This document shows, piece after piece, positions 3,002 to 16,200 of a DNA stretch of 64,000 nucleotides. Origin of the DNA: Escherichia coli (GTDB lineage: Bacteria; Pseudomonadota; Gammaproteobacteria; Enterobacterales; Enterobacteriaceae); assembly GCF_044324875.1 (NCBI RefSeq), contig NZ_CP172188.1; one strand, given 5' to 3'. Made by a program: the position numbers and the translations under genes. Every line of letters starts with the position of its first letter. Within the stretch, counting starts at the first letter, position 1. The notes below the pieces were generated by a model, which was not told the origin of the DNA, ran no database searches, and saw only the letters and a list, made by a program, of their open reading frames with translations.

Positions 3002-4180
3002 ATGTTAAGAGCGACAAAAGTACGCATATATCCCACTACTGAACAGGCTGAGTATCTCAATGCCCAGTTCGGTGCGGTACGTTTTGCGTACAATAAAGCT
3101 CTTCACATCAAAAAACATGCTTACCAGCGATACGGGGTGAATTTAAGTCCGCGCAAAGATTTAAAGCCGTTGCTGTCTATAGCGAAGAAGTCCCGTAAGT
3201 ATGCCTGGCTCAAAGAGTTTGATTCAATGGCATTGCAACAGGCAGTAATTAATCTTGATGCGGCATTTTCCAACTTTTTTAATCCGAAGCTGAAAGCACG
3301 GTTCCCGACGTTTAAACGTAAACACGGGAGACAATCGAGCTATCACTGCACCGGAATCAAGGTGCTGGATGATGCCATTAAGATCCCTAAACTGAATCTG
3401 CCGATAAAGGCGCGTATACACCGTGTAATTACGGGAAAAGTAACGAGCATAACAATTACTCGCAATGCCGCTGGGGAATATCACGCATCCATCCTTTGTG
3501 ATGACGGTATTCCCGCGCCAGAGAAACCCACGTATCTGGAAGAAGAAAAGATTACTGGTGTGGACATGGGATTAACAGATTATGCCATCAAATCGGATGG
3601 TAATAAGGTTGGTAATCCTCGTCATCTCATCAATGCCAGTCGTAATCTGCGACGCAAACAAAAAGCGTTATCCCGCAAGCAAAAGGGAAGCGCGAACCGT
3701 AAAAAGGCCAGAATCCGTCTGGCAGCGTTACACGAACGGGTGGCTAATGCCCGTGCTGATTTTCAACACAAGCTCTCTCGTGCAATTGTTGACGAAAACC
3801 AAGCGGTAATTGTCGAGACGCTGAAAACAGCCAACATGATGAAAAACCACAATCTGGCAAGAGCGATAGGTGATGCAGGCTGGCATAGCTTCATCACAAA
3901 GCTGGAGTACAAGGCAGCGGAAAAAGGCGTTCACCTGGTAAAACTCGACCAGTGGTTTGCCAGTTCGAAAACGTGCCATTGTTGTGGTTACAAAATGCCG
4001 GAAATGCCGCTTCATAAACGCATCTGGCGATGCCCTGAATGTGGAGCAGAGCACGACCGCGATATCAATGCGGCGCTCAATATCCGGCAAAAAGGAATAC
4101 TGGAACTAAAGGCGGCGGGACTCGTCGTTTCTGTCCATGGAGGCCAGCGTAAATCCGTCGAACAGACGGTAGCGGCCTGA
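3002..4180 (+). CDS. tnpB: TnpB (OrfB) RNA-guided nuclease of IS200/IS605
   Basis: 392 aa; C-terminal zinc finger CHCCGYK...CPECGAEHDRDINAALNI typical of TnpB/OrfB; divergent from tnpA. Confidence 0.9.
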   Translation: MLRATKVRIYPTTEQAEYLNAQFGAVRFAYNKALHIKKHAYQRYGVNLSPRKDLKPLLSIAKKSRKYAWLKEFDSMALQQAVINLDAAFSNFFNPKLKARFPTFKRKHGRQSSYHCTGIKVLDDAIKIPKLNLPIKARIHRVITGKVTSITITRNAAGEYHASILCDDGIPAPEKPTYLEEEKITGVDMGLTDYAIKSDGNKVGNPRHLINASRNLRRKQKALSRKQKGSANRKKARIRLAALHERVANARADFQHKLSRAIVDENQAVIVETLKTANMMKNHNLARAIGDAGWHSFITKLEYKAAEKGVHLVKLDQWFASSKTCHCCGYKMPEMPLHKRIWRCPECGAEHDRDINAALNIRQKGILELKAAGLVVSVHGGQRKSVEQTVAA

Positions 4181-4240
4181 GAAGTGGGAAGCCTCGCCCG
4201 ACAGGGCGGGGAGCAGTCACATAATTCATTGCGTCATTAG
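4060..4240 (+). ncRNA. putative TnpB-associated omega RNA / right-end element (boundaries approximate)
   Basis: Inferred from established TnpB biology (guide RNA from the tnpB 3' end and right end); subterminal hairpin at 4193-4212. Confidence 0.3.
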
Positions 4241-4769
4241 GTAGCGGATTAGTTGGTTCGGCATTTGCCAGGGATTGAGATAAACGCGTGATTAATTTGA
4301 CCATTCTCCGCTGCCGGAGGTTGTATCCTTCAGCTAAAGACAGGTAACTGGAAAGGGTATTGCTTAAGCGGGCGCGAAGCTGATCCGTGCCGTGACATTC
4401 AATAGCAACATCACGTAACGCATCGACCAGTTCACGGTAAAGATGCGCTGCCATTCTGCAATCTGTGTCAGATGGTGCTTCATAAATTACCGTCAACCCC
4501 AGTTTTTCAGCCAGAGCGTGTTCTGCACGTGCTCCTGCGGACACATCCCATCCCTTAAGCAGATAGATCGCATCAGCAGAACGCACCATTGCCAGGCAAA
4601 TATCCATGTATTCACTCTGGCAAAGGCCACCAGGTAACACAGCTGGATTCAGAACGATATGCCCTTCAGACATCAGCTCGCTCGCTTTCGCATTAAACGC
4701 CGCACGGTTGTAGTCTGGATAACCAGTCATCGGCCCCGCGATGTAAATTTTCAAAACACGTTTCACCAT
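4077..4769 (-). CDS. DUF4406 / nucleoside 2-deoxyribosyltransferase-like protein, 3' end interrupted by the IS right end
   Basis: N-terminal KIYIAGPMTG...GWDVSAGARAEHALAEKLGL fold signature; reading frame runs without stop across the IS boundary (about 4225), so the last ~50 codons are IS-derived. Confidence 0.5.
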   Translation of the reverse strand: MVKRVLKIYIAGPMTGYPDYNRAAFNAKASELMSEGHIVLNPAVLPGGLCQSEYMDICLAMVRSADAIYLLKGWDVSAGARAEHALAEKLGLTVIYEAPSDTDCRMAAHLYRELVDALRDVAIECHGTDQLRARLSNTLSSYLSLAEGYNLRQRRMVKLITRLSQSLANAEPTNPLPNDAMNYVTAPRPVGRGFPLLRPLPSVRRIYAGLHGQKRRVPPPLVPVFLFAGY

Positions 4770-4962
4770 CAAAATTTCCCCAAAATCGTGACGCAAAACA
4801 TAAGCACTGCGAAAAGCTCAATACCAAGCTCAAGTAGCGCCAACGCCCCGAAAAACAACACATAGAACAGGCCAATCTCATTCACAGATGGCTGGTGGAT
4901 CGCACTTAAAGCTATAAGCATCATGTCCTCCAAACAGTTATCAGGAATGATATTAATGTTTT

Positions 4963-4982: not shown

Positions 4983-5041
4983 AATATCTAACTGTTTTGA
5001 TCAATCATAGAAAAATAGCTGAAAAGTAAGAGGCAGCCATC

Positions 5042-5620
5042 ATGCAGAAACAGAGCTATTGGGAGAAACAGAGACAAAAAGCCATGCAAAAATTGGCTGA
5101 CCCAGCCTGGCGAGAGGAACAAAGGGCAAAGCGCCTTCAACAAGCTCAACGCCAGCAGCAGCGAGCGAGAGAAAAAGCCGCATCGCCTGAATATCGGCAA
5201 AAGAAAATTGAAAAAGCAAAGCAATATGAACAGCGGAGAAAAGATAAAGCTGTATCCGCTCCGCCCAAAAAAACACGCACGTCACGCGGCCTGAAGGGCA
5301 GATCACTCACAGCCGATGAACGCCGGATACAGACCGCTATCGGTACTCTCCCCTGCATTGCCTGCCATATTCACGGGCAACATAGCCCAGTGGTATCCCT
5401 GCACCATATCTTCGGGAGAACGGCAGAGAACGCACATAAATATGTCCTCCCTTTGTGTAAATGGCACCACCAGTACGCAGCGCCAGCCGAGGTCCGAGAA
5501 CAATATCCCTGGCTGGTCCCTGTTCATGCTGATGGAAAAATAGGCGGAAAAGCAGATTTCATACGGCACAATGCCGATGAAATGGCGTTGTATCAGATGG
5601 CGATTGAATTAATAAATTAG
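5042..5620 (+). CDS. ref: Ref-like HNH endonuclease (recombination enhancement function)
   Basis: Highly charged K/R/Q-rich N-terminus followed by HNH core CIACHIHG...SLHHI...CKWHH; architecture as in P1 Ref. Confidence 0.6.
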   Translation: MQKQSYWEKQRQKAMQKLADPAWREEQRAKRLQQAQRQQQRAREKAASPEYRQKKIEKAKQYEQRRKDKAVSAPPKKTRTSRGLKGRSLTADERRIQTAIGTLPCIACHIHGQHSPVVSLHHIFGRTAENAHKYVLPLCKWHHQYAAPAEVREQYPWLVPVHADGKIGGKADFIRHNADEMALYQMAIELIN

Positions 5621-5631
5621 TTTTCTAACAT
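5621..5631. promoter_or_regulatory. operator-like motif copy (ttttctaacat)
   Basis: Core TTCTAACA motif immediately after the ref stop. Confidence 0.25.
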
Positions 5632-5951
5632 TTTAAGTTGAATTGTAAATTTCTCCGATGTACATTCACTACCGATTGGCACACCGGTCAACTTTTTGAG
5701 ACAAACTGTTTAGTTTTTCGTATTATTGCCCCCGCCATACCTATGGCGGTGCAATATAGGTGGCTGAAAAGCCCCCGTTGACTCACGGTGTTCCAGCCTT
5801 TATTGCGCCGCCACCAGACCGTGGAACAGTCGATGGCGGCTCCGAAAGCAAGGAGTCACTACACTATGAACAACTACAGTCTTTTCCCATCACTCGTCGT
5901 CCACCACTCACGCGATAATCTGCATTCTTTATTCGCGCTGGGGGAGTCAAA

Positions 5952-6119
5952 ATGACTGTTCGCTACCTCAACTTTCAAATCAAGAACATTACTGGCGGTT
6001 GCTATGACTGGTTTGTCACTCTCGGAAAAGAAGTGATTACCGGGAAGCTGGATGAAGTGAAAGCTAAAGCAATGGCCTACGCCTGCAAGCAAGCCCGGAA
6101 GAAATCCGCCAAAGCATAA
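5952..6119 (+). CDS. small hypothetical protein (55 aa)
   Basis: ATG preceded by GGGGAG; overlaps (ATGA) a 29-codon ORF at 5866..5955 that has an AAGGAG RBS; below the 60 aa ORF-track cutoff. Confidence 0.3.
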   Translation: MTVRYLNFQIKNITGGCYDWFVTLGKEVITGKLDEVKAKAMAYACKQARKKSAKA

Positions 6120-6431
6120 AATACTGACTGTTGCGCCCTGGCATTATCGTGGGGTATATTTCTACGGCACCTTAGAAAAACGGGTGCCGGGATTGGAACC
6201 CCGGATAATGCAAAAGGCGACACAGACGCCGAAAGCGTCTTTTCTTGTGTCATGCCATCGCACAGCCATACGTAGCGTTTAGCTCAGAGATCAATGGTAG
6301 TGCTGGCTGGGCTGCCGAAAGGCAGGCCGGTTCCCTTTTGCGCCGGTAGTTCCAACCCAGTCAGTGCTACCGCCATTGAGATTGGAACCTCACGCGGTAG
6401 CTCCTTAAATTAGCAAAAGGAGGCTGCCAAT

Positions 6432-6647
6432 ATGGCTACTATCCCTACCCCAACTCATTCTGAATTTATCTGGCGTTTCTATTCCTGCCAAAAACACCTG
6501 TATATCTGCGTCATGGCTGCAACCGAAGCAGAAGCTCGTTCATACCTTCCTGAAGAACCCTGCATTTTTGCCGCACGCTTCACTCTTGATGCGATGGAGA
6601 TCCTCAATTACTGGAATCTGCCAATGAACTGCGTGGAGGTGCACTGA
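6432..6647 (+). CDS. icd: Icd-like small protein (host cell division inhibitor family)
   Basis: About 71 aa, paralogous to two other copies in the window (EFIWRFYSC...AATEAEARS...CVEVH); stop overlaps the ant start. Confidence 0.7.
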   Translation: MATIPTPTHSEFIWRFYSCQKHLYICVMAATEAEARSYLPEEPCIFAARFTLDAMEILNYWNLPMNCVEVH

Positions 6648-7588
6648 TGAATCTGTCCATCTCTCAAAAAGCGACAATGACCAGCATTGAGATCGCGGAA
6701 CTGGTAGGAAGTCGCCAAGATAGTGTGAAGAGAACTATCGAAACACTGGCTAAAAAGAGTGTGATCCAATTTCCACAATCTGTGGAAATTGAAAATAAAC
6801 AATCAGTTGGCCCTCGTCGATTTTCCAAGGCTTACATCTTTGAAGGCGAACAAGGCAAGCGCGATAGTATCATTGTCGTCGCACAGCTCTCTCCGGAATT
6901 CACCGCCCGGCTGGTGGACCGCTGGCGCGAACTGGAGAATGCCAGGGGACCGTTAAAATCAAAAGCCGAAATCCTGGCTGAAATGGCGCAAATGCATCTT
7001 GAGCATGAACGCCGGATCAACGCCGTAAATGCCCAGGTAGCCGAGGTATCAGCACAAGTATCGATGGTCGCTGAAACACTCGAGCAAATAAAGAAAGGCA
7101 ATATGCCGGAAGGCTACATTGGCTACCGCCAGCTGGCGGCGAAATGCGGCCTGACTGAAGCCAAATGTCGCAACCTGGTTAACGCTTACCGGATACCCAC
7201 TGATACGCATGAGTTTTTGACTCCCGACGGTTTGCTTGCGCGACGCTCAATTGTGGCCCTGGCCCCCTTCCGGAAAGCCTTTAAGCAGGTTATGTCGGAG
7301 GCAGAACCACGCAACAAACGCTGGTATCATCCAAAGATGGGGATGTTTCAGGCAATCCACCATCCTGTGCCTGAAAGTCCAAAGGCAAACCTGTCGTTGC
7401 ATACCGCCAGAGAGAGGATTAAAACAGGGTATGCAATCGTATGCCGTCGAGCATCTTGGCCTGAAGGTGTATGGGTATGGCCCGAAGGTGGATCACGAAA
7501 GCACTGGCGCACTATCCGGGATGGGAAAATCCATGCGATTGATTTAGCTCCAGAGGATGTTGTTGCTACGGACTGGATTGTTAGTTAA
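6647..7588 (+). CDS. ant: Rha-family phage antirepressor (Ant), copy 1
   Basis: N-terminal Rha-like TSIEIAELVGSRQDSVKR; C-terminal ~200 aa near-identical to the copy at 39035..40033. Confidence 0.8.
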   Translation: MNLSISQKATMTSIEIAELVGSRQDSVKRTIETLAKKSVIQFPQSVEIENKQSVGPRRFSKAYIFEGEQGKRDSIIVVAQLSPEFTARLVDRWRELENARGPLKSKAEILAEMAQMHLEHERRINAVNAQVAEVSAQVSMVAETLEQIKKGNMPEGYIGYRQLAAKCGLTEAKCRNLVNAYRIPTDTHEFLTPDGLLARRSIVALAPFRKAFKQVMSEAEPRNKRWYHPKMGMFQAIHHPVPESPKANLSLHTARERIKTGYAIVCRRASWPEGVWVWPEGGSRKHWRTIRDGKIHAIDLAPEDVVATDWIVS

Positions 7589-7596
7589 TTACTGTT

Positions 7597-7618
7597 GCCC
7601 CGGCCTGTCCGGGGCTTT
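7597..7618 (+). terminator. rho-independent terminator hairpin after ant
   Basis: gccccggcctgtccggggc stem-loop followed by TTT; same hairpin after the other two ant copies. Confidence 0.6.
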
Positions 7619-7647
7619 AACTACTAAATAACCGGATTCTCCGCACG

Positions 7648-7932
7648 ATGAAGAAAATAGATTTCACTTACTCTGCTGCCACAATCCAGCGACGTTTCAG
7701 TCTCATAAGGGAAGTGGAACTATCAAAAAACTGGTATCAAATTCTACTGGATGAAGAGTTTTCACTGATGGTTATAGCAGAAAAATTGGCTATGCCGAAT
7801 GACCGGCACAAGGTCATAGCCAGCCTGGATCTGGTGACAAACAGATACTGGGAATCCGAGGAACTACTTGAAGTTGGCTTGATACGCGAGATGATAGAAC
7901 AGGCTGTTCCCCTCCACTTACAGCAACCATAA
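7648..7932 (+). CDS. hypothetical protein (94 aa)
   Basis: ORF at the start of a low-GC island; no recognisable motif. Confidence 0.4.
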   Translation: MKKIDFTYSAATIQRRFSLIREVELSKNWYQILLDEEFSLMVIAEKLAMPNDRHKVIASLDLVTNRYWESEELLEVGLIREMIEQAVPLHLQQP

Positions 7933-8068
7933 TTGAAAGGTCTTAACGATAGTCTGCCACGAATAGTTACTTTCACTGCCTAAAGTTATTTAATTGCATT
8001 ACAAAGTGTAAATTAGTAACATTAGAATCTCACACAGCACTATAACTATATGTTTTTTATGTAAAAGG

Positions 8069-8428
8069 ATGATAATCGTGGCTACTAAAATTAAACTTGA
8101 AAACCCTCAAACTGGCGAATCAATCACCGGTTTTTATGGTTTTTCCTGGACTACATTCTTGTTTGGTGCTTTTCCAGCTTTGTTCAGGAAAGACTTTATA
8201 ACTTTTATTGGGGTATTCGTAGTGATGCTGATACTGGCATTCCTCACAGCCGGAATTGGCCCGTGGATTGCCTCATTTATCTGGGCGTTCATGTATAATA
8301 AATATTTCACCGTAAATAAGATAAAACAAGGCTTCATTTTTGCTGGTTCTCACACAGAAAATGAGTTGGCTGCTAGCAAGCTAGGATTGTCATTAAATCA
8401 AAACAACTGCAAAACTATTACCGAGTAA
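8069..8428 (+). CDS. small integral membrane protein (119 aa)
   Basis: Two to three hydrophobic helices (FLFGAFPALF, IGVFVVMLILAFLTAGIGPWIASFIWAF); low-GC region. Confidence 0.5.
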   Translation: MIIVATKIKLENPQTGESITGFYGFSWTTFLFGAFPALFRKDFITFIGVFVVMLILAFLTAGIGPWIASFIWAFMYNKYFTVNKIKQGFIFAGSHTENELAASKLGLSLNQNNCKTITE

Positions 8429-8468
8429 TAGCCAAAAAGCAGGCTTAATAGTAAGCCTGCTATGTCAA

Positions 8469-9290
8469 TCACGAATCTCTCTGACAATTCAGAAACATAA
8501 ACGCCCGCTTGTCTGTTAAATCCGTAACATAATACTCTCTCATGCCTGTAGGTTTTATTCTACGAGCATATACAAACTTATGAACTGGTTGTTTTTCCCC
8601 ATAACTTACATCAGTCCTAAATTCATCAACCACGCTACCATCTTTTTCGACTTCCTTCCTCACCAGCTTATTTTCTAATGCTGGCTTTAATTCGTCCATG
8701 CCACTAAAAGCATCCTGGCCTGTACTATTGCCTCGATTTCCGCGCGGCAAATCCCAGGAGAAATAAGTGCCATAGTCAGTAATCACACGATCCCAGACTC
8801 CGGTATCCCCCATATAGTTAGAGCGCTTTCCATTGTAGGTTACAGCCACTTTACAGGAGTACGTTTCTTCATTCCCTCCAGCCTTACTCGCTGTGGTTGC
8901 AGGGATATTTTGGATAGATGCGCTTACGTCATCTTGCGTTAATTCCTCAACTGGAGCAAATTCATATATGGGTGTGCCGAGGCTATTTAAATATAACTTA
9001 TATCTAACCCTAAGCGCACTTCCATCTGAGAATTCATACGTTCCCAGGCATTGGAGCTTATTTTTTTCTCTTATCTCATTGATCTGATAATAAGCATCAA
9101 TTACAGAGATTGCTTCCTGATCGTCCTTCAGCAGTTCATTATAATCATCAATTAACATCTGTCTGGTTTTAGGGGCATTGCAGTCAATTTTGCTAAAATC
9201 ATAAGCAAAGGCAAATGTGGGAACAGAGAGAGCAACAACAGTAGCAAGTATTGTTGAGGAACATCTTTTTCCATTTTTTATAAAAAACAT
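8469..9290 (-). CDS. secreted/periplasmic protein of unknown function (273 aa)
   Basis: ORF 8469..9353; likely start is ATG at 9290 with GGAG RBS, giving signal peptide MFFIKNGKRCSSTILATVVALSVPTFAFA; low-GC. Confidence 0.5.
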   Translation of the reverse strand: MFFIKNGKRCSSTILATVVALSVPTFAFAYDFSKIDCNAPKTRQMLIDDYNELLKDDQEAISVIDAYYQINEIREKNKLQCLGTYEFSDGSALRVRYKLYLNSLGTPIYEFAPVEELTQDDVSASIQNIPATTASKAGGNEETYSCKVAVTYNGKRSNYMGDTGVWDRVITDYGTYFSWDLPRGNRGNSTGQDAFSGMDELKPALENKLVRKEVEKDGSVVDEFRTDVSYGEKQPVHKFVYARRIKPTGMREYYVTDLTDKRAFMFLNCQRDS

Positions 9291-9530
9291 TTCATTAACT
9301 CCATACTTTACCATCTTAGCCGCGAGCGCGGTCCCTAAAACCATTAACTTCACTGCACCGTTCCTTCATGCAATCAAAATGACTTTTATGTTATAAAAAT
9401 AATCAGCCAAATCAACATGATTTAGGCCAAATGCGTATTCCGCTCTATTCGATCACGGATTGGCATCGAAGTCCGATCAGCGATTCGCATCCATTCGATC
9501 AACCGGGAACTTAACTTTTTCTACCGCTTT

Positions 9531-10286
9531 TTAACGCGTTTTTTCGCTGCTTTCCACTACCGGGGGATTTTTCCTCAGTGACTCTCCCTGAAGGACCACT
9601 CGGTGTGAGTTATGTACCAGTCTGTCCAGGATGGCATCTGCTGTTGTTGGGTTCTCCATCAGACCATGCCATTTATCTACCGGGAACTGGCTTACCACTA
9701 TCGTGCTGCTTTGTCCGTAACGATCCTCTATGAGCTCCAGAAGGTCATTACACTGGGCGTTACTTAACTGTTCCAGCCCCAGATCGTCCAGGATTAGAAC
9801 CTGTATTTTTTGCAACTGTTTCAGATATTTCAGCCAGCTGCCATCAACACGTCCCTGAGCCAGTTGTTCCAGTAATCGCCCGGTTCTACAGTACCGGACG
9901 CTGTGTTTCTGTCGACATGCCTGTTCGCCCAGCGCATTGGCTATCCAGCTCTTGCCACATCCTGTCGGACCGGTTATCAGCAGGTTTTTCCTGTGGGTTA
10001 TGTAGTGGCCGTTCAGCAGTTCTCTCATCTGTTCAGCCCGCAGACCTCTTGAGGCCGGATAGCGCAGCCCTTCCGGTGTTGCCTGGTATTTCAGGCCGGC
10101 ATTTTTTCTCAACCGTGCCACACGGCTGTTTTCCCTGCTCAGAAGCTCGTCATCAACCAGCAGCGTCAGCCTTTCCTCGAACGACAGTTCGTCGTAGGTC
10201 TGAGGCGTTTCCCGCTGCCGTATCAGGCTCCCGGCCATCGCCGGGAGTTTCAGTTGGGTCAGTTTGTTTAACAGGTTATCACTCAT
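9531..10286 (-). CDS. istB: IS21 helper ATPase IstB
   Basis: Walker A GPTGCGKS, DnaC-like; ORF 9531..10529 but the start matching family length is ATG at 10286 (MSDNLLNKLTQLKLP). Confidence 0.85.
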   Translation of the reverse strand: MSDNLLNKLTQLKLPAMAGSLIRQRETPQTYDELSFEERLTLLVDDELLSRENSRVARLRKNAGLKYQATPEGLRYPASRGLRAEQMRELLNGHYITHRKNLLITGPTGCGKSWIANALGEQACRQKHSVRYCRTGRLLEQLAQGRVDGSWLKYLKQLQKIQVLILDDLGLEQLSNAQCNDLLELIEDRYGQSSTIVVSQFPVDKWHGLMENPTTADAILDRLVHNSHRVVLQGESLRKNPPVVESSEKTR

Positions 10287-10302
10287 ACTGTTGTTCCTTC
10301 TG

Positions 10303-11838
10303 TCAGTGGTAGTAGCCCGGACCACGCAGGTTTTCATGCTCTGAAGCATATGCCGGATGTTGTTCGCCCTGGCGGGATAATGGAAGCTCCAGGTTCTCCC
10401 GATGGTGACGCAGCAGATTGTCGATAAAGCGTCTGTCAGGGGCGTTATAGTGCAGGGCAACGTAACAGGCCTTTTCCAGCCGTTCCGGGCCGTATTTTTT
10501 CTGAAGTGCCAGCAGCCCCAGAACTGCACGATAAGCCAGTTCCGGATGGGGTTTTGCCTTCAGCATGGATTCAACCACCCGGCCTGTGGACGGGCCCGTA
10601 CGTTTTCCCTGCTCGATCAGGCGTTCCGGTGTCCATGTCCCGTGCTGCCGGTGGCGCTCTGGCATGTGAAGCGGATTGGTTGTGTGTTTATATTCATGTG
10701 TGCTGCGCGGATGTTGCGCCACACACTGCCCCTTGTGCCAGAGCTGTACCACCGACTGCCCCGCCTTCAGTGACAGACGCTGACCGACCAGTTCGTGTGG
10801 AACGGAGTACCAGTGACGGGCATATTCAACGTGGTAGTCAGGGCCAACCTTCACAGCTTTGTATTCCGTGTATTCATAAGGTGCCAGAGGCAGCGGAGAG
10901 AGTGCTGGCGCATCCAGTATGCGGAAGCGTTCTGCACGGGTTTGATTGCCGTACCCCTTCATTGGCCGGTTATTCATGTCTGTCAGTAACTCCCTAAGGC
11001 GCGCATTCAGCGCCCTGAGCGTGTGGAAGGTTTCATTACGGATGCGGGCAAGAAGCCATCGTTCAACGATGAGGACGCCGTTTTCTGCTTTTGGTTTATC
11101 TTTAGGTTTGCGTGGTCGGGCCGGGATGATAACCGTGCCATAGTGCTCAGCCAGTGCCTGATAACTGTCGTTGATGACAGGCTCATATCGATCGGCCTTT
11201 TTCACTGCGCTTCTGAGGTTATCGGGGATGAGCAGCTTCGGTACGCCGCCCAGGAAGGTCAGGCAACGGCTGTGGGCATTTAACCATGACATCATGTCCT
11301 GACCTTCGCACGCTTCAACGTAGGTATAGTTGGACGCCCCCATTACGGCCACGAAGATTGCCACGCGGCGTATCTCACCGGTGTCCGGATTAATAACAGG
11401 AACCGTAGGACCACAGAAGTCGATAAAAAGCTTTTCGCCGGCACGATGCTCCTGGCGCATGGAGAGACGTCGCGTTTTTTTCCACTCCCGGTAGCAACGG
11501 CAGAAGTGCGAGTATCCCATCGCTTTGTTACCCGCCTGTGCCTTGTATTCCATCCACAACAGTTGCCGCGTCACACCTGGTTTTCTCATTTCCGTATCGA
11601 AGTACAACATGTCAGGCATTACAAGCTCTGATGCAAAGGTGTCTTTGGGCGGAAAAATGAGTTTCTCCAGCGTGTCATGGGATATATCAGCAGGTAATGG
11701 CCATGACAGAGAAGAGGCTTTGAAGCGGGCAAGAACCTCAAAAACGGTTGAGGCGCTGATGTGTAACGTCAGTCCGATACAACGGTTAGTCAGCTTCTTG
11801 TCGAACTTGAGCTGAAGGATCTTAAAACAGGTTTCCAT
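10303..11838 (-). CDS. istA: IS21 transposase IstA
   Basis: DDE transposase with N-terminal HTH; ORF 10303..11949, likely start ATG at 11838 (METCFKIL). Confidence 0.8.
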   Translation of the reverse strand: METCFKILQLKFDKKLTNRCIGLTLHISASTVFEVLARFKASSLSWPLPADISHDTLEKLIFPPKDTFASELVMPDMLYFDTEMRKPGVTRQLLWMEYKAQAGNKAMGYSHFCRCYREWKKTRRLSMRQEHRAGEKLFIDFCGPTVPVINPDTGEIRRVAIFVAVMGASNYTYVEACEGQDMMSWLNAHSRCLTFLGGVPKLLIPDNLRSAVKKADRYEPVINDSYQALAEHYGTVIIPARPRKPKDKPKAENGVLIVERWLLARIRNETFHTLRALNARLRELLTDMNNRPMKGYGNQTRAERFRILDAPALSPLPLAPYEYTEYKAVKVGPDYHVEYARHWYSVPHELVGQRLSLKAGQSVVQLWHKGQCVAQHPRSTHEYKHTTNPLHMPERHRQHGTWTPERLIEQGKRTGPSTGRVVESMLKAKPHPELAYRAVLGLLALQKKYGPERLEKACYVALHYNAPDRRFIDNLLRHHRENLELPLSRQGEQHPAYASEHENLRGPGYYH

Positions 11839-12228
11839 AGTGCTCCTGGATTTTCTCTTTCTGGACATTGACGTCTCCACTGGTTTAAACACGGCAATGG
11901 AGACTGTGGTGAAAAGAGTTAATTCCCGGAGTGACTGGCAGGATGCCAATCAATGATCGGAAGCATGCCAAATCGTGATCGATTGTGATGCCAAACTGTG
12001 ATCGGAGATGGATGCCAAATCATGATCGATTCGAATGCCAAACTGCGATCGATTCAGATGCCATTTTGCAGCCAAATTTCTGTCAAAAAATAAAATCCAC
12101 AAAAAGTGGTTGACACTATTTTGGAAATCACAAACTGCACATAATCCATCGCGCTAACGGCTCCCGTTGAAGGTTCTTTTGACGATTAACTTTCAGCCGA
12201 AGCGCGGTAGGGAGTCATAACGCCAAAG

Positions 12229-12256
12229 CAGGCCGCCATGTGCGGCCTTTTTTTGT
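12229..12256 (+). terminator. rho-independent terminator
   Basis: ggccgc-catgt-gcggcc hairpin followed by a run of seven T. Confidence 0.55.
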
Positions 12257-12281
12257 ATCCGTCATCCGTGGAGGAAGGACA

Positions 12282-12935
12282 ATGGAAAAGATCGCAATAT
12301 TCAGCCTGACCACCAGCAAGCCTCAAATGCTCACTGCAATACTGAAAGACGGTGCTCTCATTATTAACGAAGTAAAACCCCTTCCCGCGTCAGCATTGGA
12401 GCAAAAGCAAAAAATTCCTCCAGCTATAGCAGCCCTGCGGAAAAGCAAATTTAAGGTACTGGTAGACGAAATTACGCCAACGATCTCCGCTGGCACCGGA
12501 GCAAGCCAGGTTACTCTCAAGACCCGTCATGCCGATGGCAGAGCAGCAATCATCGTCGGGATGGAAAGATACAGAGAGTTAAAACTCCAGAAGCTATTAT
12601 CCCTGCCGCAAAATAACAAAGGTGCTTTCGAAATCCCTGACTCCATCGTTGACACCGAATACAACGGTAACGGAGAAGAAGTCTACCGGGTGAACTGGCA
12701 GGATATCAGGCCGGAACATATTCTGATGGTCCTGTGTTGCTACGCGACCGTATACCACAACGTTGCCAGTGCAGATTACGTAGAGCAGATGACCGGCACA
12801 GTCGAGAAAGAGCAAAAAACAGGCATACTCGCTTCGTTCCTGTCCATTATTGGGCATGAAAAAGTTGAAGCAGGCACCTCCCAGCCAAAGTCACTGGCTG
12901 GGAAAGAAGTTGATGAAGATACCGTGATACTTTGA
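12282..12935 (+). CDS. hypothetical protein (217 aa)
   Basis: ATG at 12282 with GGAGGAAGG RBS (ORF track begins at GTG 12240); no recognisable family. Confidence 0.5.
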   Translation: MEKIAIFSLTTSKPQMLTAILKDGALIINEVKPLPASALEQKQKIPPAIAALRKSKFKVLVDEITPTISAGTGASQVTLKTRHADGRAAIIVGMERYRELKLQKLLSLPQNNKGAFEIPDSIVDTEYNGNGEEVYRVNWQDIRPEHILMVLCCYATVYHNVASADYVEQMTGTVEKEQKTGILASFLSIIGHEKVEAGTSQPKSLAGKEVDEDTVIL

Positions 12936-13272
12936 TCACATTAGTAGCTTTGTTAACTCCCTCAATACCAGGTAGAAGAGTAACAAAAACACTGACGTGG
13001 ATACCTGCTGAGTTAAAGAAGCACTAATGAATTTATTCAATAAATCAATCAGCTTATTAAAAATATTCATCTTTTCGAATCCATTCGATCGGTAAATAAC
13101 ACCCAGCTCACTATCGAGCTGGTCCACGCCTTAAGATTAATGAAAGTCACTTGTTGACAGTCAATAAATTCCAGGGTGGCGAAAAAACTCTGTCTATACG
13201 GATAGTGCTTGCATTTTACTCTTTCTGCGTGTAGCGTATATACACAGGTTGCACGCACGAATGGAATTATTT

Positions 13273-13553
13273 TGATTAAGTCATTTCGCCATAAAGGGCT
13301 TGAACGCTTTTTCAAGACAGGTTCAACCGCAGGCATTCAGGCCAAACATGCGGTTAAGCTACGCATTCAATTGACTGCGCTTAATACAGCTAAACGCCCG
13401 GACGATATGTCTGCGCCTGGATGGGAATTGCACCCTCTAAAGGGGGCGGACCTTAAAGGTCACTGGGCAATATCGGTAAACGGTAACTGGCGACTTACCT
13501 TCCGATTTGAAGGAGAAGACGCAATTCTAGTTGACTATCAGGATTATCATTGA
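13273..13553 (+). CDS. higB: HigB-type toxin (plasmid maintenance killer protein family)
   Basis: (M)[13 protein letters not shown]...[40 protein letters not shown] matches this toxin family; family-typical start is TTG 13273 (ORF track ATG 13209). Confidence 0.75.
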
Positions 13554-13561
13554 GGAACACT

Positions 13562-13843
13562 ATGAGTCGTATGCATAATCCCGCGCATCCAGGCGCGGTT
13601 CTTCGTGAATATTTGGGAGACATGTCAGTCACAGACGCCGCTGCGGCATTAGGCATTACTCGCACGGCGCTTTCCCGAATTCTGAATGAAAAAGCAGGTA
13701 TATCTGCTGATATGGCACTTCGTCTGGAGTCCGCTCTTGGAACCAGTGCCGAAATGTGGACCGGTATGCAATCCCAGTATGAGCTTTGGGTTGCTTCGCA
13801 AACCACTCGCCCAAACATCCGTCCATTATTTTTCCACGCATAA
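13562..13843 (+). CDS. higA: HigA-type antitoxin (XRE helix-turn-helix)
   Basis: HTH region [42 protein letters not shown] directly after the toxin; ATG 13562 with GAGGAA RBS. Confidence 0.75.
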
Positions 13844-13935
13844 TTTCACAGCGTCACCAGGCCTGGTGACGCTGCTTTCTCGCATTTCACACCCTGCATA
13901 CAGTTTTCCCCAGGTTATGACTGAGGGGCTTTGTT

Positions 13936-15459: not shown

Positions 15460-16200
15460 TTATCCCACCTTTTTATTAGCATCGCATTTAATTTTTTCAA
15501 GTGAATCAGAAAGCTTTGAGAGAATCTCCTCAAGTGTCTCCCTGTCATTTGTATCACCCGAACGAAAAGATGAGTTTTTCACGGCAGTAAAAAATTCATA
15601 AAAATCATCCAACGAATTTAAGCTCTCACCTTTCTCTCTATATAATTTAATAACATGACGGATATCGCTATCCACACATTCAATCTGTTCCCTAACTTCT
15701 TCTACCTTTCTTTTTAATGATTCATGTTCTTCTTTTTCTTTTTCAAGACGCTCTTCAACGTCTTTCCGTTTCTTAGTAAGATCATTAATGTCTCTGTTAA
15801 TTTTTCTTACTTGTTCTTTTTTGTCTTCAATTTTATCTATCTCTCTCAATTTAGCGTATATTGTGCCAGTCACCATAGAAATTAGTAAAGTTAACATTGG
15901 GGCTAATATTGAAGCCACAACACCATAAATAAAAGGCAAGACAAAATGAGCTACGAATGAGGGTACAAAAACATTCCCAAATAATGGAATCTTTTCCCCA
16001 ACAAACACCATAGATAATGTATACATAACATCATCTTTTGACTTCAACAATATAAATATATCTCGCCAGTTAGAAATTAAAAATGAAATAAAAATGTAGG
16101 CAAAAACCTTATTAAACAACTTATCTTTTACAGCATCTTCTATCAGATTTTGGGCGGATGATTTTTCATTTTCCTTTTCTATTGATGAATCAGTGCTCAT
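15460..16200 (-). CDS. membrane-anchored coiled-coil protein of unknown function (246 aa)
   Basis: Very AT-rich gene; N-terminal hydrophobic helices then a long charged coiled-coil (KEQVRKINRDINDLTKKRKDVEERLEKEKEEHESLKRK). Confidence 0.5.
   Translation of the reverse strand: MSTDSSIEKENEKSSAQNLIEDAVKDKLFNKVFAYIFISFLISNWRDIFILLKSKDDVMYTLSMVFVGEKIPLFGNVFVPSFVAHFVLPFIYGVVASILAPMLTLLISMVTGTIYAKLREIDKIEDKKEQVRKINRDINDLTKKRKDVEERLEKEKEEHESLKRKVEEVREQIECVDSDIRHVIKLYREKGESLNSLDDFYEFFTAVKNSSFRSGDTNDRETLEEILSKLSDSLEKIKCDANKKVG

Follow-up and report, generated by a model that had tools for sequence, protein, structure and literature searches.

A variable locus between ant and mat of a D6-like phage-plasmid of Escherichia coli encodes a putatively secreted two-domain protein related to P1 SimB

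A group of three genes at 7648-9353 was analysed in a stretch of 64,000 nucleotides from Escherichia coli (contig NZ_CP172188.1; the whole stretch is called the window here), where it lies between the genes ant and mat of a D6-like phage-plasmid of the P1 family. Comparison with related elements shows that the ant-mat interval is a variable accessory locus and a hotspot of cassette exchange, in which the three-gene stretch is native to the D6-type element and yet swappable. The third gene encodes a protein, predicted to be exported to the periplasm, that joins a module homologous to P1 SimB to an unrelated beta-barrel. The best explanation found for this protein, offered tentatively, is that it may act in periplasmic superinfection exclusion.

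Phage D6 matches the region at 96% DNA identity, while E. coli plasmids of about 90 kb, such as pE2863-2, match it at 100% (megablast); a query of 7589-9432 found matches in 82 of 5426 complete E. coli genomes, on plasmids every time and never on a chromosome. In the D6 record (NC_050154) the genes run ref, icd, ant, orf81, orf80, orf79, mat, followed by genes 26 and 25; orf81 is labelled 'similar to P1 pmgF' and orf79 'similar to P1 simB'. The D6 genes orf81-orf80-orf79 (Gilcrease & Casjens annotation) and those of pYU39_89 are orthologues of the three window genes, in the same order and place and at 96% DNA identity; only the window has, in addition, an ISSso4-like insertion sequence (IS) upstream of the secreted-protein gene. 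In the window, a C4 antisense RNA of the immI region was recognised at 6290..6377 on the plus strand (Rfam RF01695; 76.7 bits, gathering score 45), and it is followed by icd (6432-6647) and ant (6647-7588), both assigned from the list of open reading frames (ORFs) and the D6 annotation. The position of the C4 RNA thus makes the locus immI-adjacent, and the three genes can be placed directly downstream of a c4-icd-ant immI operon. The conserved far boundary of the variable interval is a mat-like gene of 217 aa (12282..12935, plus strand; phrog_1837), annotated in D6 as 'maturation control protein, similar to P1 mat', with 98.6% amino-acid identity to the D6 protein.

The third gene (8469..9290, minus strand) encodes 273 aa from ATG 9290, which is preceded at 8 nt by a GGAG sequence; the longer ORF, 8469-9353, gives 294 aa from a GTG. 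The signal peptide, aa 1-29 (9204-9290, minus strand), reads MFFIKNGKRCSSTILATVVALSVPTFAFA|YDF and has the canonical n-h-c organisation with an AFA|Y cleavage site, both visible in the sequence, as had been claimed in the original prediction of a 273-aa signal-peptide protein; export of the product to the periplasm is accordingly predicted. Residues 8-116 align with P1 SimB over its whole length (SimB residues 2-111), its signal-peptide region included, at 45% identity (BLASTP, E = 3e-26), both SimB cysteines are kept in the N-terminal domain, and the PHROG cross-matches are reciprocal (phrog_13054 and phrog_14329); the likeness to SimB is limited to the N-terminal 116 aa. An AlphaFold2 model (pLDDT 82.5) consists of two confident domains with a disordered linker between them: a SimB-like cystatin-fold domain at aa 30-116 (8943-9203), a low-confidence linker at aa 117-141 (8868-8942) and an eight-stranded beta-barrel at aa 142-273 (8472-8867), which carries the loop R-G-N-R-G-N-S-T-G-Q-D, all on the minus strand. 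The protein holds two pairs of cysteines, one of them located at the two ends of the barrel.

When 1.84 billion representatives were searched exhaustively with HMMER, only 35 relatives of the secreted protein were retrieved, and these revealed that the two domains occur independently. Stand-alone SimB-like proteins of about 105-120 aa are found, also in chromosomal housekeeping neighbourhoods; the barrel is found alone behind a signal peptide (P0134) or after other N-terminal domains (P0009-P0011, P0132, P0137, P0144), its N-terminal partner domains being of three different kinds. The surroundings of the barrel were examined in six cases, and every one is a phage-plasmid or plasmid-like contig. 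The barrel is also the best conserved part of the protein, the segments YFSWDLP-GNRGNSTGQD and HKFVYARRIKP-G-REYYVTD being near-invariant. Comparison with D6 gave a ratio of nonsynonymous to synonymous substitution rates (dN/dS) of 0.23 for the whole gene and of 0.15 for the barrel, a pattern indicative of purifying selection; diversifying selection on the secreted protein was considered and is not supported, since this ratio is 0.15-0.42 in all segments. Sequence searches of the PDB gave no match, and a fold search of BFVD returned weak matches to uncharacterised phage proteins only, with neither SimB nor SimC among them.

The content of the ant-mat interval varies among related elements, and signal-peptide proteins are encoded by every variant examined. 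About 31 E. coli plasmids hold all three genes, some are without pmgF, the first of them, and about 50 keep pmgF alone; in these last plasmids two different genes come after pmgF, whose secreted products have 202 and 130 aa. This alternative cassette lies at 3868-4889 (minus strand) in L012 and is also present in L013, where the 202-aa protein has 165 aa; its two proteins correspond to phrog_12786 and phrog_13864, belong to no known family and have no detectable relation to the window protein, and an hhalign comparison of the gene 3 family profile with both of them found no relationship. A further variant (L006) contains a barrel protein with another N-terminal domain (P0009), encoded directly against ant and without pmgF or the membrane-protein gene. 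In a distant 88-kb relative (L009), the 202-aa gene and a SimB-barrel gene stand in tandem beside a Tad2-like protein. The Tad2-like (Thoeris anti-defence 2) assignment, at L009 6857-7186 on the minus strand, comes from a Pfam match with E = 4.6e-5 and 24.3 bits, just below the cut-off of 25. A published study of D6-like plasmids had already noted that they have a homologue of simB but neither simA nor simC, and that the sequence surrounding it diverges (PMC6799933).

A trace of such an exchange was recognised at the start of the secreted-protein gene. Here an in-frame leader of 21 codons begins at GTG 9353 (9291..9353, minus strand), and DNA alignment with L012 shows that the upstream DNA and the sequence GTGAAGTTAATGGTTTTAGGG...GCGGCTA are common to the two, which diverge past that point; the 202-aa protein begins VKLRVLGAALAA. 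The first 14 or so leader codons are a remnant of the start of the 202-aa gene, the DNA upstream is homologous to its promoter region, and the end of the similarity marks a recombination or deletion junction; this explains the clashing annotated lengths, 291 aa in RefSeq and 298 aa in D6. Alignment and empty-site comparison further delimited the upstream region of the gene at 9354..9432 (minus strand), which is conserved in the window, in D6 and in the L012 type with the 202-aa protein, is not alignable in the L006 variant with P0009, and has been cut off by the IS from its former upstream DNA.

The second gene encodes a small inner-membrane protein of 116 aa (8078..8428, plus strand; start GTG 8078). 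A start at ATG 8069 would give 119 aa, the length originally predicted; each of the 37 homologues in the alignment starts with MA, in most cases MAT, in agreement with GTG 8078, and for this reason the shorter product is preferred. The membrane part of that prediction stands, since residues 37-74 are hydrophobic; a weaker hydrophobic stretch spans residues 22-39. The protein is highly conserved among 183 homologues (phrog_4915), with invariant residues in the motifs G-x-S-W-T-T-x-x-F-G-x-x-P-x-L-F-R-x-D and F-x-Y-N, and is found in jumbo coliphages (the 121Q 'HrgC' protein) and Lactobacillus phages; orphan genes for it also occur in Enterobacterales and other Proteobacteria, in ordinary chromosomal surroundings. 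It reaches no Pfam family; DUF2628 (PF10947), a label present in some UniRef entries, was rejected, as the window protein has no match to it and matches were obtained for only 6 of the 38 homologues, the best of them at E = 0.21. One metagenomic contig (L014) encodes a membrane protein 79% identical to it and, 10 bp further on and on the same strand, has a stand-alone SimB-like gene, beside a RepL fragment; the pairing recurs there in another arrangement, which lends modest support to a functional tie of the membrane protein to the SimB-like module.

The first gene, for a cytoplasmic protein of 94 aa (7648..7932, plus strand; ORF list), is PmgF-like, with 42% identity to P1 PmgF and no match to a Pfam or NCBIfam family. 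Its predicted fold matches the N-terminal half of GNAT only. Homologues of 198-210 aa stand at the pmgF position in SJ46 (L010 2465-3097) and RCS47 (L011 2501-3097), and these run on through RDVGLA, which fits the GNAT motif R-x-x-G-x-A; in the alignment the window and P1 proteins stop directly before this position. Thus the gene 1 protein looks like a truncated GNAT-like domain in the model, and it differs from GNAT acetyltransferases, as does the P1 protein, in ending ahead of the acetyl-CoA-binding motif and in having no Pfam GNAT match at threshold. A complete GNAT fold with acetyl-CoA motif A (R/Q-x-x-G-x-G/A) is not present in the gene 1 protein and, given that the protein ends before this motif, catalytic activity is unlikely. 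In P1, SJ46 and RCS47 the pmgF homologue comes after the late bplB/pmgG tail genes; in the window it comes after ant. The name PmgF ('putative morphogenetic function') is nominal, a guess, since P1 pmgF was nonessential for plaque formation in a genome-wide CRISPR interference (CRISPRi) screen (PMC10695390). Homology to a phage morphogenesis protein, which the original prediction had named as evidence that would speak against its functional reading, was therefore found in name, in P1 PmgF, and not in substance.

All three ORFs are judged to be real genes, because their products are matched by PHROG profiles (in gene order, E = 3e-53, 3e-47 and 1e-187), because orthologues of all three are annotated in D6 and in RefSeq plasmids, and because of the dN/dS of 0.23 of the 273-aa gene. 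The description of the locus as an AT-rich stretch of three genes bounded by a hairpin and an IS21 element was confirmed: the ORFs are as described, both flanking features are present, and sliding windows gave a guanine-cytosine (GC) content of 39.7% for 7648-9353 against 47.0% for the window. Windows of the same size have a standard deviation of 3.1 points, 2.2% of them are as low as the locus and the lowest reaches 37.7%; in a 400-bp profile the GC content drops to 30-34% near 15.4-16.4 kb. The dip at the locus is real but moderate, not extreme. The hairpin 3' of ant (7597..7615, plus strand) is GC-rich and terminator-like with a weak U-tract (free energy -15 kcal/mol, z -2.95); a consensus terminator scan missed it because its stem is followed by 3 U only. 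A second hairpin, at 8438..8461, lies between the convergent second and third genes, with free energies of -15.9 kcal/mol on the plus strand and -15.3 on the minus strand (z -4.7 and -3.3); its U-tract is on the minus strand, for which the scan predicts a terminator. No match with up to 3 mismatches to the P1 C1-operator consensus occurs in the whole window; D6-type operators presumably differ.

The nearest system for comparison is the P1 sim operon, simA-simB-simC. Its third product, SimC, is a processed periplasmic protein that confers exclusion and is reportedly the only sim product with a demonstrated exclusion phenotype (Kliem & Dreiseikelmann 1989; Maillou & Dreiseikelmann 1990; cited in PMC8546580). 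The window shares with this operon a SimB homologue, predicted secretion, adjacency to immI and the character of a dispensable accessory locus. It differs in having neither SimC nor SimA (a tblastn search of the window with SimA gave chance matches only, E > 1), in the fusion of the SimB-like module to an unrelated beta-barrel, and in arrangement, since the window gene is downstream of ant and convergent with it, whereas P1 sim is upstream of c4 and divergent. According to Kliem & Dreiseikelmann 1989, as cited in PMC8546580, P1 Sim blocks the entry of phage DNA.

Under periplasmic superinfection exclusion, lysogens would produce and export the secreted protein, whose disulfide bonds would form in the periplasm; there it would stop related superinfecting phages after adsorption, at some step before their DNA enters the cytoplasm, in the manner of P1 Sim. 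In this scheme the barrel would serve as the effector, directed to its target by the N-terminal domain, which is exchangeable; the membrane protein may work together with the SimB-like domain, whereas PmgF probably has no part in this function. The proposal draws on the 45% identity to SimB, the immI flank, the signal peptide and cysteine pairs, the modularity of the barrel, the cassette hotspot, the pairing seen in L014 and purifying selection, and it is a possible reading, favoured here with reserve. The earlier suggestion of superinfection exclusion or envelope modification is thus compatible with the 45% identity to SimB and with the immI adjacency; its reasoning, from cargo beside an IS, does not hold.

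Several results weigh against exclusion. SimC, the product with the phenotype, shows no relationship to the secreted protein (BLASTP E = 0.78, hhalign probability 0.3%) and gave no tblastn match in the window; among 50,697 phage records, tblastn with SimC found P1 and two close relatives only, and not D6. We know of no experiment that ties SimB, from P1 or elsewhere, to exclusion. The SimB-like and membrane-protein families are not phage-specific, as both occur as single chromosomal genes, and the three genes form no obligate unit, because L006 has the barrel protein alone. Searches of the three proteins against Pfam, NCBIfam and PADLOC returned nothing significant, the best PADLOC-DB match being to a methyltransferase model over 56 aa with E = 0.012. 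Finally, a consensus sigma-70 scan found no promoter 5' of any of the three genes, with intragenic matches only.

It is somewhat unlikely, though the mosaic content of the interval suggests it, that the three genes are independent morons that share a hotspot and have no joint mechanism, the secreted protein then serving in another envelope role such as adhesion or receptor masking. About 50 plasmids have pmgF only, some have the membrane and secreted genes and one variant the secreted gene only; moreover, the genes are on different strands with terminator hairpins between them. The renewed adjacency of the membrane protein and a SimB-like gene in L014, in another arrangement, argues for a tie between these two, and for the secreted protein itself independence of the genes is largely compatible with exclusion.

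A different function in the same compartment, and an unlikely one, would be that of a host-protective periplasmic inhibitor, a form of lysogenic conversion with a fitness gain other than the blocking of phage DNA entry. Here the cystatin-like domain and the barrel would bind an incoming hydrolase (lysozyme or transglycosylase, protease, colicin or type VI secretion system effector). This reading is suggested by the cystatin-like and PliC-like folds: with its eight-stranded barrel and its cystatin-like domain of helix-on-sheet type, both predicted to be exported, the secreted protein is alike in fold class and compartment to the small periplasmic barrel inhibitors MliC/PliC, PhiA and ACP and to cystatin-fold inhibitors.

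A role in the lytic cycle, in virion morphogenesis or in the control of lysis as the name pmgF implies, is very improbable. The homology to P1 PmgF and the position of pmgF after late tail genes in P1, SJ46 and RCS47 speak for it; however, P1 pmgF and simABC were both nonessential in the screen cited above, pmgF here follows ant with no tail operon, and its fold is GNAT-like rather than structural. In addition, a search pattern based on LPsit, a late promoter of P1, had 5 matches against 3 expected, none of them near the locus, and there are D6-like plasmids, intact in other respects, that lack entire genes of the locus.

The IS beside the locus is an ISSso4-like element of the IS21 family with istA and istB, 2638 bp in length (9433..12070, minus strand), delimited by BLAST against pE2863-2 and by the ORF list. 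It is flanked by a target-site duplication, GCCAAA(T), at 9426-9432 and 12071-12077, and the window on its two sides (5001-9432 and 12071-12997) is collinear with the uninterrupted pE2863-2, the flanks overlapping by 7 bp (BLAST). Full-length, 100%-identical copies, annotated as IS21 family transposase and ISSso4-family IstB, are found in many E. coli replicons; matches covering at least 80% of the element occur in at least 225 E. coli genomes, in up to 23 places per genome, and these observations together indicate that the IS is currently active. The target site is empty in D6, in pE2863-2 and in about 30 further phage-plasmids of E. coli, all of which have the three genes, and the IS junction at this site was seen in none of the complete E. 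coli genomes searched. Since relatives hold the genes at the empty site, the IS is a later, unrelated insertion into the DNA that separates the secreted-protein gene from mat, which is divergent from it, and its adjacency, originally taken as a sign of acquired cargo, is coincidental. That the genes were brought in or mobilised by this element, alone or as part of an IS21 composite, is hardly credible and was rejected: adjacency and a GC contrast (39.7% in the region, 52.3% in the IS) are all that speak for it, against a discrete IS with a clean target-site duplication and identical copies elsewhere, a junction absent from the genomes searched, and the same genes, outside the IS here, in the same place without it in D6 and some 30 plasmids.

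A wider form of the exclusion proposal can be imagined, in which the barrel with its GNRG(N/D)STG loop is the effector of an unrecognised periplasmic entry-blocking family of plasmids and phage-plasmids, the N-terminal domains (SimB-like, helical or membrane-anchored) set the target and the membrane protein partners the SimB-like module; it is speculative, and improbable in this full form. If it holds, the function of P1 SimB would become approachable for the first time. Should the secreted fusion protein indeed exclude related phages, it would shape which phage-plasmids coexist and spread, D6-like phage-plasmids being common in E. coli and Salmonella, and it would offer a tractable entry to the long-unexplained P1 SimB.

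The locus belongs to an annotated variable region of a known phage family, whose simB homology and variability are published; in the published D6 annotation orf79 is merely 'similar to simB', and neither the two-domain architecture nor the cassette structure is described. The present analysis adds that the 'simB-like' gene encodes two domains, that the barrel family is confined to contigs of mobile elements, that the cassette has a recognisable junction and that PmgF is GNAT-like; it also corrects the start of the membrane-protein gene and removes the IS-cargo reading.

Some further features were observed around the locus. Upstream of the true C4, 5739-5818 and 6167-6245 hold two further RNA matches, a second C4-like one of 40.2 bits, under the gathering score of 45, and an isrK match of 59.4 bits directly before C4; a second c4/icd-like region has been mentioned for D6-like plasmids (PMC6799933). 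The orthologue of ant (Rha-family) at L002 5248-5958 is an incomplete pseudogene according to RefSeq in pE2863-2 and other plasmids; in the window and D6 the ant ORF is intact (313 aa), with DNA nearly identical to that of the 'pseudogene' plasmids, and the pseudogene call is probably an artefact of the annotation model. Beyond mat, 12998-13871 cannot be aligned with pE2863-2, where about 200 bp stand instead; this segment contains ORFs for a HigB-like toxin (13209-13553, 114 aa) and a HigA-like helix-turn-helix antitoxin (13550-13843, 97 aa), a second toxin-antitoxin pair beside the higBA-like pair found further on in D6-like plasmids. Finally, an ORF of 246 aa at 15460-16200 (minus strand), which has hydrophobic segments and a long charged tail resembling a coiled coil, sits where the first 20 kb are richest in AT (30-34% GC, lower than at the locus) and appears to correspond to D6 orf73, annotated as 'hypothetical protein'.

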